Part shown: one piece after another, positions 35,349 to 43,945 of the stretch
How positions within the stretch are numbered: position 1 is the stretch's first letter
How the letters are laid out: each line of letters opens with the position of its first letter
Source of the DNA: Candidatus Marinacidobacterales bacterium
GTDB lineage: Bacteria; Acidobacteriota; Vicinamibacteria; Marinacidobacterales; SMYC01
Assembly (NCBI GenBank): GCA_965237955.1
Contig: OZ250169.1
Location: forward strand, 5,408,001-5,472,000
Length of the DNA: 64,000 nt
Direction of reading: 5' to 3'
The notes under the pieces: model-generated
Seen by the model: the letters and a program-made list of their open reading frames with translations, nothing else
The model's database searches: none
Told to the model about the DNA's origin: nothing
Program-made: the position numbers and the translations under genes

Positions 35349-35591
35349 GTGCCTTCGCCTTGGAAAGCCGACGAAGAGGACCGCGCTCGCCTCGACCAGG
35401 GCCGGAAGCTTCCCGCACTCGCGCGCGTCATTGCCACTTGGGGGCTCGCGGTCGCGAGCGAGCGAGCGGGCGATGTCGCGGGCTCCGAGAGCCTCATCGC
35501 CGAGCTCCGCGAGGCCGCGCCCCACAGCGCTCCGCTTCTCCTGATCCCCCCGAGAAACGTCTAGCGTCGTCTTCCGGTGCTAGACTCGGGA

Positions 35592-37007
35592 ATGAGGTTG
35601 CTGACGGTGCTCTTCATCAGCGCCGTGTCGGGCATCGGTTCCGCGGCCCAGGACGATTGGATTCAGGTTCAGAGCCCTCACTTCATCGTCATCACCAACG
35701 CGCGCCGCGGCGAGGCGTGGGACGTGACCGACGAGTTCGAGCGCATCCACGCCGTTTATCAGAGAGCGATCACACGCAAGCCGGACCGTCCTCCGCCGCC
35801 GACGGTGATCTTCGCCGTTACGGACAACCAGAGCTTTCGAGAGCTTCTACCCGACGCTCACGAGGAACTGGCGGGCAGGTTTCTGGAGTCGAAGGATGGG
35901 CCTCGCATCGTGCTCCGTCTCAACGTACCGGCCGAAGTGGGCCATGCGACTCTATACCACGAGTACCATCACGCCATGCTGCGAGCGAGCTATGGTCGGG
36001 GGACGCCGAGCTGGCTCCGGGAAGGTCTAGCCGAGTTCTGGTCGCAAGCAACGATCACGCTCAAAGACGTCGAGATCGGGACGGCCCATGACGCTCACCT
36101 CCAATACCTTCGCCGCCAGACCACCTTCGAGTTGGCTCCGCTGTTCGCGCCGAACGGCTCGACCCACGACATGGATCCTCGTGACCGGCGCGCGTTCTAC
36201 GCGAGCGCGTGGGTGCTCACCCACTGGATCCTGATGGCCGATCGAGGCGACGGCGAAGAGAAACTCAACCGCTACATCGAGAGTATCATGGAGGGTGGCG
36301 ATCCCAACGAGACCTTCGAATCGACGTTCGGGCCGGTCACGAAGGTCGAGTCCGAAGTAAGGCGCTACTTCCGTCAGTCGACGTTTTCGTCCAAGAGATT
36401 CCCGGCTCCAGCCGAGATCAACGAAGCGTTCTCGATTCGAGAGCTGAGCGCGGAAGAATCCGTGGCGCTCCGAAGCCGATTTCTGACGTCTCGCGGGCGA
36501 ACCGCGTCGACCAGAGGTTTGCGGGAGCGGACCGGGACTCTAGGCGTCGGCGCCGAAGCCGAGGGAGTCGAAGCCTTCGAAAGCTACGAGCTCGAACTCG
36601 CCCGCGAGCGCTTCGAAGAGGCCGTCTCCGCCGGCGCGGCGACCCACCTTTCGCACTACTACCTCGCGCTACTCTCCCAACAAGAGGGAGATCGCGCCAA
36701 CGTCGCGTCACGGCTGGAACACACGCTCGATCTCGACCCCGAGTTCGCGCCGGCCATCATCGCGCTCGCCGAGCACTACGCGCGCGAGCCGGAGCGAAGC
36801 GAGCGAGCGCTTGAGCTCGCTCGCCGTGCCCTCGCGCTCACGCCCGACGACCGGTTCGAGCTGGTGCGCCTCGGCCGAACGTTCGTGGCGCTCGAGCTGC
36901 TCGACGCGGCGCAAGACGTTCTCGCCCGCCTCAAAGCGATGCCGTCCGCTCCCGGAAGCGCGGCAATGATTCGCGCGCTAGAGGATGAGATAGCCCGCCA
37001 ACGCTAA
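35592..37007 (+). CDS. Secreted DUF1570-like gluzincin-motif protein with TPR repeats
   Basis: Signal peptide, WIQVQSPHF, HEYHH...PSWLREGLAEF, FYASAWVLTH, C-terminal TPRs. Confidence 0.75.
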   Translation: MRLLTVLFISAVSGIGSAAQDDWIQVQSPHFIVITNARRGEAWDVTDEFERIHAVYQRAITRKPDRPPPPTVIFAVTDNQSFRELLPDAHEELAGRFLESKDGPRIVLRLNVPAEVGHATLYHEYHHAMLRASYGRGTPSWLREGLAEFWSQATITLKDVEIGTAHDAHLQYLRRQTTFELAPLFAPNGSTHDMDPRDRRAFYASAWVLTHWILMADRGDGEEKLNRYIESIMEGGDPNETFESTFGPVTKVESEVRRYFRQSTFSSKRFPAPAEINEAFSIRELSAEESVALRSRFLTSRGRTASTRGLRERTGTLGVGAEAEGVEAFESYELELARERFEEAVSAGAATHLSHYYLALLSQQEGDRANVASRLEHTLDLDPEFAPAIIALAEHYAREPERSERALELARRALALTPDDRFELVRLGRTFVALELLDAAQDVLARLKAMPSAPGSAAMIRALEDEIARQR

Positions 37008-37308
37008 AAACTTAGGAAATTAGATCCCGGTCGCTGCCTGGTGAACGGGCGGAATTGCGCCCGACGGTGTGCGGACGGGGGTTTTCGGTGCGCGGGTATG
37101 GGGATACAAGCGGCCGGTGCGGCATTGAGCCTAGGACAAAGTGTAGCGAGGGTGGTTCGGGCGCACGGGTCTCATCGAAAGACCCCTGAATGGTGCCAAC
37201 CGCTATGCCCGCGGCAGGGAGTCCGGCGGAATAGGAGGGTCCTTGTTATTACGATTTTCGAGATGGTTCAAGATCTGGCGGATGACGGAGGGCTCGGTCG
37301 ATTAGGTT

Positions 37309-39411
37309 TCATAATGCCCCCTTTCCTACAATCCAGGAATTGTGAGAGTTTTTGTTGTCGCGAGGGGTTGTTCGCGGACGGTAGTCCTTCGAAGCCTGCA
37401 CGGCCTGTTTGACTTGTGGTTCGTCGAGGTCGCTACGGCGGATACTCCACGGGACCGATGGCGCGGCCTGAAGGGCAGGCAAGATGCCGCGGCCGATGAT
37501 ACGCCGCACGGTCATGGTGCAGACGCCGAGAATGCTTGCCGCCTCGTTGAGAGTGAGCACCTCGCTCGGCTTGTCGTCGGACCGGTCCAGTGCGGGGAGG
37601 TTGTGGTAGGAACGGTAGGCCCGTACACGGCCCGCGTTCCAGGTTAGCCCCGTGCTCGTGTGGATGCTAATCCGGTTGAGAGTCAAGGCGATGTCGTCAT
37701 CGGAGAAGCGTCCCGCCAACTGCTCCATGATTTTCGAAGTCTTCTCGGCGCCAACGCGGCGATGTCCCGTGGTGTTCTTCCGGACTCGGCGCGTCGAGTG
37801 GATACCGCCCCTCCAGTGAATGACGGCTTCGATGGTGTCGCCGGCCTCGTTGACGTCGGCAACGATCTCCTCGACGAGCGTGCGCACGATGCGCTTTTTG
37901 AGGCGCATGTCCGTCGAAGGATCCTCCCATACCCTCGCGAAGTCTGAGCCCAACGTGAGCAGCTCCTCGGGATCAATCGCGCGCTGGGGTGATGGAGTTT
38001 GCTCCTGCTCGCGAAGACGCTCCTCAAGCGAGCGCACACGCAAAAGCGTCTCGTTCCAGCGCCGCTCGAGCTCACCCGTTACCAGCCGATTCTCAGGGTC
38101 GGAGGCGTCGTACTGGCGGAAGTTCCGCTCGGCCTGGTAGCGCGCCTGCTCCAGCTCCAACTCCACCGCCTGAAGATGCTCGTCCCTATCCTCGACCGCC
38201 ATTCGCCCTGCCGCGACCGCGGCTTCGATCGCGCCTGGCTCCAGCACCTTGAGGACCTCTTCCTCTACCGCTCGCTCCAGGCCGTTTCCACGAAAACCCA
38301 GACAGCTACGCTCGCCGTATTGGGCGACGGCACTCCGACATCGATACAAAGCGACGCCCTGTTTGCCGGAGTAATGCACGTGGAGCTTGCGCCCGCAACG
38401 GCCGCACCGAAGTAGCCCCGCAAGTAGGGCCCCGCCTTGTCGGGGCGCGCCCCTGACCATCCGCCCTTTCATGTTGGCATTCTCCTCCAAGAGCTTCTGA
38501 TTCCGCTCGTATTCCTCCCATGTGATGTAACCAGGATGATGGTCCTTGATCAAGACGGTCCACTCCGAGCGCGGCTTGTGATGACCGCGCGTGACATGGG
38601 CACGCTCGTCCACGATACTCGTGCGCGAACTCGTCCGGCCAAAGGCGTAGGCACCAGCATAGATGGGGTTGTTCAACATGTTCAACACCGTCGTGTAGCT
38701 CGGCAACGCCCAAGCAATCTCCGCATCCAAGCGGCGGCCACGGCGCTTGGGAAGCGCTATCTGCTGTTGACGCAGCCAGAACAAGCTCTGGCGCGCGCTT
38801 CCCAGCTCGCGGAACTTCGCGAACACCATGTCGAGGGCTTGTTGGATGCGCAGGTCAGGCCTCTTCTCGAGCGCGCCCTCTGCTGTCCACTGGAAGCCTA
38901 CCGGTACGAGGAATCGCAGCTCGCCTCTGACCGCCTTCTGATGCCTCGCCTCGAACGAGCGTTGACGAAACAGCGTCAACTCGTACTCGCTCATCGTGCC
39001 CTTGAGGCCGAGCAACAGTCGGTCGTTGCTAAAGCGCGGGTCGTAGATGCCCTCGGGGTCGATGAGCAACGTTCCCACCAAGCCACACAGATCGATCAGG
39101 TGATGCCAGTCGCGGTTGTTGCGGGCCAGGCGTGACGCCTCCAAGCACAAGACAGCTCCCACTGCGCTCAGAGAGACCTGGGCGACCAGTCTCTGGAACC
39201 CGGTTCGTCCAGCAAGAGTGGAACCCGAGCGGCCTAGGTCCTCATCGATCAGTTCCACGTCACCGAAGCCCAAGCTGCCTGCGTGCTCGACGAGCGCATA
39301 CTGCCGACGCTGGGACTCCAGGTTCTCGCGGACTTGTGTCGCGGTCGACTGCCTGACATAGACGATGGCTTTACGCGCGAGATGCTCAGACGTGATCTTG
39401 GCGCTCATCAT
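37309..39411 (-). CDS. Large serine recombinase (resolvase, recombinase, Zn ribbon, coiled coil, C-terminal excisionase-like HTH)
   Basis: YVRQST catalytic Ser, EASRLARN, NPIYAG, HHPGYI, CGRCG, LTLNEAASILGVCTMTVRR. Confidence 0.95.
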   Translation of the reverse strand: MMSAKITSEHLARKAIVYVRQSTATQVRENLESQRRQYALVEHAGSLGFGDVELIDEDLGRSGSTLAGRTGFQRLVAQVSLSAVGAVLCLEASRLARNNRDWHHLIDLCGLVGTLLIDPEGIYDPRFSNDRLLLGLKGTMSEYELTLFRQRSFEARHQKAVRGELRFLVPVGFQWTAEGALEKRPDLRIQQALDMVFAKFRELGSARQSLFWLRQQQIALPKRRGRRLDAEIAWALPSYTTVLNMLNNPIYAGAYAFGRTSSRTSIVDERAHVTRGHHKPRSEWTVLIKDHHPGYITWEEYERNQKLLEENANMKGRMVRGAPRQGGALLAGLLRCGRCGRKLHVHYSGKQGVALYRCRSAVAQYGERSCLGFRGNGLERAVEEEVLKVLEPGAIEAAVAAGRMAVEDRDEHLQAVELELEQARYQAERNFRQYDASDPENRLVTGELERRWNETLLRVRSLEERLREQEQTPSPQRAIDPEELLTLGSDFARVWEDPSTDMRLKKRIVRTLVEEIVADVNEAGDTIEAVIHWRGGIHSTRRVRKNTTGHRRVGAEKTSKIMEQLAGRFSDDDIALTLNRISIHTSTGLTWNAGRVRAYRSYHNLPALDRSDDKPSEVLTLNEAASILGVCTMTVRRIIGRGILPALQAAPSVPWSIRRSDLDEPQVKQAVQASKDYRPRTTPRDNKNSHNSWIVGKGAL

Positions 39412-39571
39412 CGCTCACCTCGCTTTCGCTCTTCGTCACTTCGGCGCGCCGAGCTGCTTCGAGCAGTAGCTGCTGCATCAACTGACGCAGTGTCTCCCGC
39501 GAGGATGTCAGAAGCTCGTTCCAGCGCGGGCGGTCGCTTTCGAACAGACACCCCTGTATCGGTCGTTTCAT
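39386..39571 (-). CDS. Small overlapping ORF (61 aa) of the recombinase element
   Basis: Strong SD AAGGAGGT before ATG 39571; PRWNELL...LMQQLLLEA helix. Confidence 0.55.
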   Translation of the reverse strand: MKRPIQGCLFESDRPRWNELLTSSRETLRQLMQQLLLEAARRAEVTKSESEVSDDERQDHV

Positions 39572-39870
39572 CAGAAGGCACCTCCTTTTGGTGCCCTCTG
39601 GATAACACGGCTCGCAGAAGTTTCCCCATCTCCGACAGTGCCTCCATCGACGCCTGAGGCGAGCTCGCTAACGACAGTCCCGCGCAGTGCACCGCGTCCG
39701 TCATCCACGCCGGCACCGGAACAGGTGTCCCCTCCCGCGAGATGCACTGGTAATACGCCACGCCGCCGTGTCGCTGCACACTGCTCACGCTCAGGCACTG
39801 GCCGCAACGCGGGTGCCAGCGGTAGTGGACCGTTACTGAACCCTGTTCACGTGCAGTATGTGACTGGGTT
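39408..39870 (-). CDS. Accessory ORF (Y4bD/Y4pK, DUF5372-like); start codon supplied only in the excised attP circle (159 aa)
   Basis: Open frame up to the att core: QSHTA...VHYRWHPRCG...VPAWMTD; no ATG/GTG/TTG before 39788 in the integrated state. Confidence 0.7.
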
Positions 39871-41002
39871 GGTGATGAACGAGACGACGCGCATTCGGCC
39901 GCGGCAGTTTTTGCAAATCAACGGGTCGGTTTTGAACACACGGCGGATCAAGTTGGCCCATCGTCGGCGAAGGGTTTTACGCTGAGTGGCGTTGAGCTCG
40001 TTGTCGTCAGGTGCAGGTCGTTTCTTTCGGGTATGTTTTCTTGTTCGTCGGGCGTAGTGACCGTAGTACAAGATCGAATGCTGGTTGGGCTGGAAATCGT
40101 CCGCATTCGGGCTGCTTCGAGGGAATCAGATGTTGCGGGGCTGCTTCGAAGGACCCCTACCGCAAAAATGTGGATGAGCACGCGGGCGAGGAACTCGAGC
40201 GGGTCGAGGAGCTCGGCTTTTCTATTTTTTGATTTGGGCTGATAGAGAACGTAGTTGCTCTTTTTGTCGTAACGGAGTCTTTGTAGGGAGACGGGGCATC
40301 GGACGATGTAGCGAGAAAGGGATTCAAGGGCTTGGGTATCGGAGGGATATAGGTAGACATCATTATCGGTGCTAAAGCCGCTCCTGCGCCACGAACGGAG
40401 AATCTTGATGCGTTCGTCCGAGAGAAGGTCGTGTACTTGAAGAAGTCGAAAGATCTTCTCCCGAAACAGAATTTCCGCGGCGTGGGTGTCGATGTAGGGA
40501 ACAGGAATCCACTGTCCGTCGTCACGCCAGACGCCTCTGGAGACGATGGAGTGCAGATGTGGATTCCACTTCAAGTTGTCGGAGAAGGTCTGTATCGAGG
40601 CGACCATGCCGACGCGAACGTTGCTGTCCTCGACAGCAGCGGCCATGAGCTCGTGGACGGTTTCGTAGCCTGCGCGGGCGAGCTCGGTGAGGAGCTCTCG
40701 GTGGAAGAGAAAGTAGGGGCGGAGCATTTCGGGAATGGAAAAACTCCAGACGGCATGGCCGACGTCTTGCAAAAGCTCCTCTTGAAGAAAAGCTGCGAAG
40801 GCCGCGGCTCTTTTGGCGTCGCATGACGGACAAAGACTCCTGGCTTTGCACGAGAAGCAAGTAAGAATTCACTCCGGCAATCCTCGCAAACGATCCGGGC
40901 GAAACCTCCTTCTGGAACCCCGCAGTCAAAGTACCGTAGCACCACGTTGTCGACGAACCCGCGCCAATACCCATACACTTTTTCGAAGCGGTCCTCCCAG
41001 TG

Positions 41003-43945
41003 TGCGTATTCCAGCCATCGTGAACGCCGAATCCAGAGCAAGCTGAACAGCGAATCCGGTGAAGCCGAACGCTCATCGAAGCGATGAAGTGTTGGGTGAC
41101 CTCCTTCCCACTGATTGAAAACGTGAACCTATCTTACCTGCGTGTTGTGTAGCAAGGGGCGGCAGGTCGGTGCCGGAGGGAGCGGGCGTAAGGAAAGACG
41201 CGAAGCGACCTTCCCGCTCCCGTAGGCAGCGACCTGCCGCGGCCGAACCCCGGGCGATGTGGGGCTGGTTTCGGGGGGTTGCTGGGGTATGGCCTGGCTC
41301 GAGAAGACGCTTCCTGAGGCATTCTCGCGCGTCGTTTTGGCGCCGCATCGTCTGGTACCCCGGGTTTGGCGGTTTCACCCGTTTTTATCGCATCGACGCT
41401 GTGGTCCCTCGCTCGCTCATGCATCGGCGTTGTCAAATGCCTTTGGCGCAGCCTTGGTCTTTCTCAGAGAAGCTCCTTTGAGAGTGATGCGGTGCGCGCT
41501 GTGGAGAATGCGATCGCAGATAGCGTCTGCCTGGTTTGGGTCGCCAATCGCTTCGTGCCACTGCTTGAGCGGAATCTGGGTCGCGATGAGTGTGGAGCCA
41601 CGCTCGGCGCGGTCTTCGATGACCTCCATTAGATCCCGTCTCTCCGATTCTTTCAGCGGGTGAAGCAGCCAATCATCGATAGCCAGTAAGTCCAGCTTGG
41701 CGAGTTTCGTCAAAAGCCGGGCGTAGGAACCATCACCACGAGCGACCGCGAGCTCGTGGAGCAAGCGCGGTGCTCGCACGTAGCATCCGGTGAAGCCGCG
41801 ACGACAGGCCCGCTCCACGAAGGCGCAAGCCAAGAACGATTTGCCAATCCCCGTCGGGCCGGTGATGAGCAGGTTATGGCGCTCACCGACAAAGCGGCAG
41901 TTGCCCAGGCTCAAGATCTGTTCGCGGTTTAAGCCTCGAGGCGCTTGGAAGTTCACGTTCTCCAAACATGCCGGATAGCGGAGCTTTGCCGCTCGCAGTC
42001 GTCGAGAAAGCTTACGCTGTTCGCGGGCGGTCCACTCGGCATCGACCAGGAGTCCCACACGTTCCTCGAAGCTCAGCTCCTTGTATTCGCTCGAGCTCAA
42101 CTGGGTTTCGAACGCGGACACCAAGCCGAACAACTTCATGGCGTTTATCTTTTCTATCGTTTCGGGTGTCAGCATCGGGACTCTCCTCCTTCGTAGTGAT
42201 CCGCGCCTCGGATGTTCTCGTGCTCCTCTCGCGGTTTCGCTTCGGCGTCCGATTCGAGCACCACACGATCCAGACCAGCCGAGAGAATGTTTTTCACCGT
42301 GCGATAGCTGTAAGAGCTCAAAGCTTCCGCTCGTGCGCAAGCGGCCTCGAGACGCTCACTGCCCCAGCGGCTGCCTAGTCGCATGACTCCCAGGCAAGAG
42401 CGAAATCCCTGCTCCGGGTGAGGCCGACTCTCTAGAATCCCCGCAACCAGCCTTCCCGTGGCGCGACCTGACTGCTCCGCCCAGTGGAGCAGCCGCGACG
42501 GCGTCCACTCCAGGTGCTCCCGATGCGAACGTGGCATATGCTCCGGGTTCGTGGAGTAGTGCCCCTTTCCTTTCTTGCGGGGATGCGACGCGACGCGCTT
42601 TCCCTTGAACAGGACCTCCACCACCGAGGCCGTCACCCGTGCCTCGACTTTCTCGTGAATGAGCTGATAGGGAACGCTGTACAAGTTGTTCTCCACCTCC
42701 ACGTGGTAGTCGATGTTCACTCTGCACCGCTTCCACGTCGATAACTCGTAGCTCTCCTGCGGTAGCGGTTTCAGTACGGGCCGGTCTAGCCTTTCGTACA
42801 ACTCCCGCCGACTCACACCGAGCTTCTGCATCGGACGCGCATTCAGGACCTCTAACTTCTCCCAGATGGCTTCGTTCAGTTCCGCCAGGCTGAAGAACGT
42901 GCGATGACGAAGCACCGCCAGGATCCAGCGCTGCGCCACCTGCACTGCCGACTCCACCTTCGCTTTGTCTTTCGGCTTGAACACCCGAGCCGGGACCACA
43001 ACCGCACCGTAATGCGTCGCCAGCTCTTCGTACGTCCGGTTGATCCCTGGCTCGTAACGGTCCACCAAATCCACGCCGCTCTTCAAGTTGTCCGGAACCC
43101 AGATCTCCGTACTGCCACCGAAGTAATCCGACATCCCCTTATGGGCCTTCGCCCACGATTCCAGCGACTGGTTCAGTGTCGCTTCGACGTAGGTGTAACT
43201 GCTCGCGCCCAACGTCCCGACGAACAGCTCCATTTCGACGAGCTCTCCCGTTTTCGGATCGACGATGTGAGGCTTCTTCCCCGAAAAATCGACGAATGTC
43301 TTCTCGCCTGCTCGATGCCGTTGACGCATCGTCGGGTTCAGCTTCTTCTTCCACTGACCGTACAGCTCGCAATAACGGCTGTAGCCGTACGCTCCCGGCT
43401 TATTCTCCGCGTACTCCACCCACAGCTGCAGCAACGTCAGCTCTCGGTGACGCCTCAGCTCCTCGTGGATGTGGGCATAGTCCAGACCCGGCCGTGCGCC
43501 AGACGAGCCCGGCGGCGGAAACAGCCCTGCCTCCAGCTCCCCGCCGCTCAGCTCCTCCGGGAGCGGCCAGCTCAGACCACCCTTCTTCGCCTTGGCCAGG
43601 TACTCACTCACCGTTCCAACCGCCACGCGAAGTGCCTTTGCGATCATGCGGTGAGTAAAACCCAGCTCGTACTTTAACCTTAGAACCTCTCGTATTTTTC
43701 TCATCGATAACCTCTTAGCTGCCATTTCCTAGATCGTCCTCCTTCCGGGTACGACCTAGAGTTGCCTTGAAACGTGCTATCGATGAGCGTTCGCGATGCC
43801 GGAACCGGCGTTCACGTTGCCTGGAATCCGTGTTCACCTTCCCCGGAATCGATGTTCACGATCCCCGGAATCCGTGTTCACGATGCTTTGGAATGGATGT
43901 TCACCTTCGGCTGGAATCTGCGTTCACGATGCCCCGGAATACGCA
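41003..43945 (-). mobile_element. IS21-family element C (istA 42169..43725, istB 41417..42175)
   Basis: Ends TGCGTATTCCAG and rc TGCGTATTCCGG; VDFSG, PDNLKSG, KDKAKVE; GPTGIGKS, IDDW; flanks show no TSD. Confidence 0.93.
43781..43945. repeat. Seven tandem 22-23-bp subterminal repeats (GTTCAC..N..GGAAT) at the IS21 end
   Basis: Units read directly; 3-4 inverted counterparts at 41003-41080. Confidence 0.85.

Follow-up and report, generated by a model that had tools for sequence, protein, structure and literature searches.

A minimal serine-recombinase element whose accessory gene is parted from its predicted start signals by integration

An accessory gene divided between the two ends of an integrated element

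The locus described here raises the question of how a mobile element can use a gene whose body begins without a start codon. The window, a stretch of 64,000 nucleotides from a Candidatus Marinacidobacterales bacterium (GenBank assembly GCA_965237955.1, contig OZ250169.1, positions 5,408,001 to 5,472,000), contains a 2575-bp element on the minus strand (37299..39873, one core copy counted) that carries a large serine recombinase (LSR) gene and two small open reading frames, ORF A and ORF B. The DUF5372-like body of ORF A (39408..39873, minus) is start-less. Its 5' piece, ATG 37312-37310 plus 11 nt (37299..37312, minus), lies at the opposite end of the element, preceded by a purine-rich ribosome-binding site (37317..37327, minus) whose first bases are the recombinase stop codon of relatives. 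When the ends are joined in silico, a 159-aa frame runs from ATG 37312 to the stop at 39410-39408, which overlaps the recombinase ATG. A first-pass annotation of this DNA had proposed just such a junction, joining a ribosome site and ATG in frame to a start-less ORF of 159 aa, and we reproduced it; its arithmetic for the circle (2575 bp) was also correct. In the integrated state, the first start in the frame of ORF A is GTG 39788, as had been stated, and the frame meets a stop 15 codons upstream of the element end without a host ATG; the 5' piece runs into the target gene out of frame. Read from the sequence, integration parts the predicted ribosome site and ATG of ORF A from its body.

The ends of the element carry this result. 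The cores ACC at 39871..39873 (left junction, minus; central dinucleotide AC, inferred from the symmetry of the attachment, att, site) and 37296..37298 (right junction, minus) are spaced 2575 bp apart; a three-base match by itself is at chance level, other spacings giving matches of 3-5 bases. Excising 37299-39873 in silico restores the end of an IS91-like (Y2_Tnp) transposase gene, of which 39874..40772 (minus) is the 5' part and target and 37205..37298 (minus) the 3' remainder. Once rejoined, the flanks show a gap-free alignment of 235 nt (89%) with a paralogous IS91-like site of this genome that is empty, and contigs of five public runs (X2, X3, X5, X6 and X18) skip exactly 2575 bases, although these may be paralogous empty sites. 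It is this empty site and these skips, and not the core match, that fix the ends, and they confirm the earlier placing of the element between two cores. Insertion is precise, with a shared core of 2-3 nt and without target duplication; the predicted core dinucleotide is the same at both ends in 45 of 56 elements with two ends, and the joined site of the circle (attP) shows inverted symmetry around the core in a position table.

The element is small. No terminal repeats were found in a repeat search, no phage genes among its ORFs and domain matches, and no replication or transfer gene in the ORF list and domain scan of the element. The Resolvase, Recombinase and Zn-ribbon domains of the recombinase all scored above cut-off, and DUF4368 was not detected in the domain scan of the element proteins. 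The host genome holds a second member of the family (C1:319.8-322.4 kb, 2641 bp, core TA) within a highly multi-copy insertion sequence (IS), with a recombinase 43% identical to that of the window; its empty site (C1:915.4-915.7 kb) matches at 98.75% over 240 nt, and its circularised ends give an in-frame ORF of 164 aa. A 222-bp fragment at C1:4097345-4097566 is 94.6% identical to the recombinase gene of the window.

Conservation and predicted translation of the junction frame

Relatives from several bacterial phyla keep the split layout. A single-sequence homologue search gave 5 close relatives, and 456 were present among species genomes, of which the best 80 of 456 were fetched. Most of the fetched relatives interrupt the tnpB gene of IS66 elements, with TnpB profile matches split at positions 42-48, and element lengths in these loci were set independently, from the two TnpB diagonals. 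Among 47 loci scored, 36 had both flank scores at or above 40 (the 11 under 40 and 6 short-flank loci were excluded), and in 35 of the 36 the length puts the ATG 27 nt before a conserved His codon, in frame; the one exception, L052, is off by 2. All 56 two-ended elements are open from the ATG through the YxWHP motif, the geometry being assumed for the 21 without independent confirmation. ORF A is present in 65/68 loci. Two other explanations of the ATG were rejected: that it restores the 3' end of the target gene, because the frame differs in the window and tnpB insertions occur in both orientations (25 reverse, 11 forward), and that ORF A is fused to the N-terminus of the target, because in the window the frames differ.

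The same arrangement was found in Y4bA-type relatives, whose recombinases are 35-39% identical to that of the window. Seven of 11 loci gave a unique rejoin of a target motif, and all seven of those were in frame; the motif list was drawn up after the geometries had been seen, so that this test was not blind, and Y4bA-type geometries listed earlier were in frame by construction and were excluded as evidence. The insertion lies at a K-G/A-K/R-V-E motif of IS21/ISNCY-type transposases in L141, L156, L157, L161, L163 and L110, and in an IS91-like gene, at another site than that of the window, in L152; the target motif was not found in L155, L159, L164 and L165. The junction start stands 11 or 14 nt before the core in this group, the arm sequences differ too, and the copy boundaries agree in two multi-copy sets. 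With 35/36 tnpB loci and 7/7 resolved Y4bA-type loci in frame, the expectation that the junction frame would be conserved and not random among homologues was borne out. At L159 (G019:C82), whose ends lack an independent fix, a GTG preceded by a strong ribosome site seems to serve as junction start; if the reading of this sequence is right, it would speak for a role as start codon and not as a fixed base for binding. Three copies that are 99.96-100% identical at different sites of one genome, that of Paraburkholderia sp. HD33-4, point to recent movement, and another genome (G053, L145-L151) has seven copies of one element at varied GC-rich sites.

The junction also has the properties expected of translated sequence, as tested for stops, starts and ribosome sites on 48 distinct junction types. 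In-frame stops occur in 0/48, versus 3 and 8 in the other frames and 18 on the mirror strand, and two shuffles gave an expectation of 22-34%. The ribosome site at the junction ATG has a mean of -7.5 kcal/mol, with 92% at or below -4; the corresponding values are -1.7 kcal/mol and 2% for the mirror arm, and -2.6 kcal/mol and 23% for 1829 internal ATGs used as control. An in-element ATG before the conserved motif was found in none of the 48 junction types, consistent with the first-pass annotation. The ratio of non-synonymous to synonymous change (pN/pS) in ORF A is 0.10-0.36 over codons 10-90 (19 pairs), versus 1.1-2.5 in the other frames from codon 14, which indicates that ORF A is under purifying selection at the sequence level. 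Gene calls for ORF A in databases have scattered, host-derived N-termini. Considering these results, we regard it as very likely that the split-gene switch is real and conserved.

ORF A, ORF B and the recombinase

The DUF5372 profile (PF17342) matched ORF A of the window only at E 0.04, below cut-off, and 31 of 57 ORF A family members matched it at E<=0.1 (best 2e-7). ORF A was linked to DUF5372 clusters at Atlas 0.94, and hhalign aligned the DUF5372 protein of plasmid pNGR234a to ORF A with a probability of 78% and E 1.8e-5; hmmsearch with the ORF A (A1) profile missed that protein, which was found by hhalign only. ORF A is therefore likely to be a divergent branch of DUF5372, as far as profiles can tell. 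Searches of ORF A against PDB sequences, of ORF A and ORF B against NCBIfam, and of viral folds at E<=0.001 gave no match. AlphaFold2, run on 57 sequences (pLDDT 81), predicted four strands and three helices for ORF A, in the order SH3/KOW-like barrel (residues about 13-64 in the numbering of the full protein), helices and low-complexity tail. Residues 8-59 of the model match SH3/KOW/Tudor barrels (Z up to 5.5, rmsd 1.8 over 48 residues), no helix-turn-helix (HTH) fold was found in it, and nine residues of the domain are invariant. GTG 39788 corresponds to model residue 29, and a start there deletes the first strand and loop of the barrel, so that the 126-aa product of the integrated state would be unlikely to fold.

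ORF B (39386..39571, minus; 61 aa) has its own start and lies in the +1 frame within the tail of ORF A. It is found in 67/68 loci, has no Pfam or NCBIfam match, and contains an invariant Gln in a QLxLxL-like motif and a conserved ALADLLL helix. ORF B and the tail of ORF A overlap in different frames, and the tail is open as far as the recombinase start. ORF A stops within -2 to +4 nt of that start in 52/56 elements, versus the 21% of cases in which the ORF B protein alone would leave the frame open, which points to translational coupling from ORF A to the recombinase. A QLxLF motif binds the beta clamp in the transposition proteins treated in one report (PMC4549789), and the QLxLxL motif of ORF B and the xxLPGF-like end of the recombinase both resemble it in sequence. 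ORF B is a candidate excision or fork-coupling factor.

The recombinase (37309..39411, minus) has 700 aa, with Resolvase, Recombinase, Zn-ribbon and C-terminal HTH_17 domains, and its last codons are shifted by an extra A. A run of five A (37349..37353, minus), four in relatives, causes a +1 slip that yields the ATGA overlap of recombinase stop and junction ATG, and replaces the conserved C-terminal xxLPGF-like end. In the three closest relatives (86% identical), the recombinase stop is a TAG equivalent to 37328-37326. The ATG stands 15-18 nt past the first base of the recombinase stop in 53/56 elements, overlaps the stop in 2/56 (the window copy and L035) and is 42 nt away in 1/56. The first-pass annotation had presented the circle as wholly coding and had pointed out the ATGA overlap; as family traits neither survives, the former depending on the single extra A of the window copy and the latter occurring in only 2/56 elements. 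Judged from the aligned elements, the family layout is a short spacer, carrying the ribosome site, between recombinase stop and ATG. The extra A is probably a genuine mutation of the window copy, because an error-free 816-nt contig of run X1 carries it and the diverged copies found in X1, X3, X4 and X5 do not. The X1 contig disfavours a sequencing error, although X1 may be the source sample. The window recombinase may be impaired if the xxLPGF-like end matters.

The neighbourhood also contains other mobile DNA. An IS21-type istA/istB pair lies at 41417-43725, and the adjoining 100 bp near 41000-41100 recurs at least 45 times in the genome in near-identical form; the IS on this side appears to truncate the 5' part of the same IS91-like gene. 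At 40109-40153, where the frame of the IS91-like transposase breaks, two 16-nt repeats lie 29 nt apart, and run contigs skip about 73-82 nt there, which suggests a small insertion. On the other side of the element, 35577-37007 encodes a 476-aa protein with an HEYHH motif and weak DUF1570 and TPR matches, a possible peptidase.

Possible roles of ORF A and comparison with known systems

We propose that this is a minimal serine-recombinase element in which ORF A is made only from the circle, as a recombinase cofactor favouring re-integration, a reading that we consider about evenly balanced as a whole; for the pro-integration role taken on its own, we would put the case just short of even. In this model, the recombinase would excise the circle with factors present while the element is integrated, namely ORF B and/or its own excisionase-like C-terminal HTH. 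Transcription through the recombinase gene would then cross attP and reach ORF A as the next gene. Ribosomes ending ORF A would stop on the recombinase start codon, giving more recombinase in the circle, and ORF A would tilt recombination towards attP and the target site (attB), whereupon integration would turn ORF A off again. ORF A cannot start excision, since by this logic it is made only after excision; and, as the element carries no gene for replication or transfer, a circle that failed to re-integrate would be lost, so that ORF A most likely favours attP x attB. More tentatively, the family may represent a widespread class that parasitises the genes of other IS and controls direction in reverse, a circle-only DUF5372 integration cofactor with its start codon in the attP arm, and in this branch a closed recombinase-ORF A-recombinase translation loop, replacing the usual recombination directionality factor (RDF) that serves excision only.

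Several observations weigh against this reading. GTG or TTG precedes the conserved motif in 18/48 junction types, just 1 of which has a ribosome site of -4 or lower, and an in-frame host ATG stands upstream in 13/48, so that some integrated copies may leak ORF A. As protein sequence, codons 2-9 of the junction evolve almost neutrally (pN/pS 0.80), and rhizobial Y4bA-type elements have a weak ribosome site (-3.9). Within the att inverted repeat, the ATG mirrors the His codon CAT, and conservation of the ATG alone could therefore be explained by recombinase binding. The first-pass annotation had remarked neither on this symmetry nor on the targets being genes of other IS. Relatives share kinship, so that the counts are not independent and significance is inflated. 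The recombinase start has a strong ribosome site of its own (median -10), by which the coupling may be dispensable, Y4bA-type elements lack the ORF A tail, and the predicted barrel match is generic and carries no function. Circles were not seen either: among the matches listed, the contigs of 8 public runs had no attP junction, in assembled contigs that drop rare forms and in RNA runs that contained only diverged relatives; the attP pattern had 0 matches in 103 loci and 0 in viral contigs, and its 6 matches in metagenome contigs were all chance, with no recombinase or ORF A/B match. A scan covering the integrated form only gave no sigma-70 match on the minus strand. Of the first-pass claim that recombination gates the partner gene, the part that concerns the gene stood, as ORF A is completable only across attP, conserved and selected; circle formation was seen in no dataset, and the check for junction reads proposed at that time found none in run, metagenome or viral contigs.

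The mirror symmetry and the missing circles could also mean that fixed att geometry produced the in-frame junction as a by-product, with ORF A made from internal or host starts or not at all; given a single origin, the frame would match by chance in one case out of three. We consider this very improbable, because the ribosome site is on one arm only, the junction has no stops, the frame is kept despite a 3-nt change in the start-to-core distance and different arm sequences, and internal ATGs are missing. A comparably slight chance attaches to the idea that only the translation of ORF A matters, by coupling ribosomes to the recombinase start in the circle, with the protein incidental. The position of its stop on that start in 52/56 elements, far over the 21% expected, fits this idea, but purifying selection and the nine invariant domain residues speak for the protein, and the DUF5372 gene of NGR234 stops about 900 nt short of the recombinase.

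If the protein does matter, it might still act otherwise than in re-integration. Small proteins beside large serine recombinases are often RDFs, and ORF A, tightly linked to its recombinase in 65/68 loci, might be a classical one that blocks re-integration and promotes the excision of other copies, thereby providing positive feedback or acting as a timer. This is unlikely in our view, since ORF A could not drive the first excision, ORF B and HTH_17 are already available before it, and a circle without a replication or transfer gene that is barred from integrating would be lost. Slightly less likely again is a target-capture or circle-protection factor, which would bind a host or IS partner or nucleic acid, not the recombinase core, and guide the circle into transposase genes. 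Barrels of the SH3/KOW-like kind serve as binding modules, and the targets are diverse (IS66 tnpB, IS91-like, IS21/ISNCY-type and integrase-core IS) with differing cores; however, it is established that serine recombinases recognise attB directly, and the single site and orientation of each lineage fit sequence recognition by the recombinase.

Among the known systems that come close is the cluster of DUF5372, HTH, small ORF and recombinase genes annotated on pNGR234a, which we take to be y4bD-y4bA. It is alike in its recombinase (38% identical), in the DUF5372 protein that aligns to ORF A, and in an in-frame junction start, and unlike in its extra HTH gene, its length of about 3.3 kb, its target at an ISNCY-type transposase motif and an ORF A without tail; its DUF5372 gene is annotated with an internal GTG start. 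We found no account of its ends or of a switch, and no description of the present system, in searches of the open-licence PMC and bioRxiv literature.

Genes gated by recombination are known from elsewhere. SSV-type archaeal integrases have the att site inside an element gene that is whole only when the element is free (PMC5861418). The likeness is plain, but there the tyrosine integrase itself is split, whereas in the window the serine recombinase gene is whole and only the start signal and 14 nt of an accessory gene are cut off. In mycobacteriophage BPs, attP lies in the repressor gene, and integration activates the repressor by trimming off a C-terminal degradation tag (PMC4557955); here too attP is in a non-integrase gene and recombination is the switch, but it is the 5' end that is split, the gene is silenced on integration by removal of its start, ORF A lacks an HTH fold in its model and phage genes were not found. 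The circle-junction promoters of ICEKp1 and ICEclc switch on, by joined ends, a function thought to favour re-integration (PMC13023037), and they differ in joining a promoter to the integrase gene, where in the present family an accessory gene receives its ribosome site and start codon. Durrant et al. described LSRs, both site-specific and multi-targeting, that interrupt conserved target genes (PMC10083194), as in the present family; a search of 8 supplements did not find IS66, TnpB or DUF5372, nor was IS66 found in the main text. Tn4451 belongs with the circle-junction promoters in both respects; it reportedly has such a promoter for TnpX, a large serine recombinase. In none of the systems compared does the junction supply ribosome site and start codon to an accessory gene distinct from the recombinase in a minimal serine-recombinase element.

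The family is common, with 475 plasmid records and 3056 ORF A-like clusters besides the relatives in species genomes, and its elements disable IS66, IS91-like and IS21-type elements by insertion. DUF5372, a family of unknown function mis-started by gene callers, gains a defined place and a direct test, and a route at the level of translation is added to the state-dependent control of site-specific recombination. By the textbook rule, serine integrases manage integration unaided and require help for excision only; if ORF A is indeed an integration cofactor, this rule would be reversed in the present family, which would be relevant to integrase engineering.

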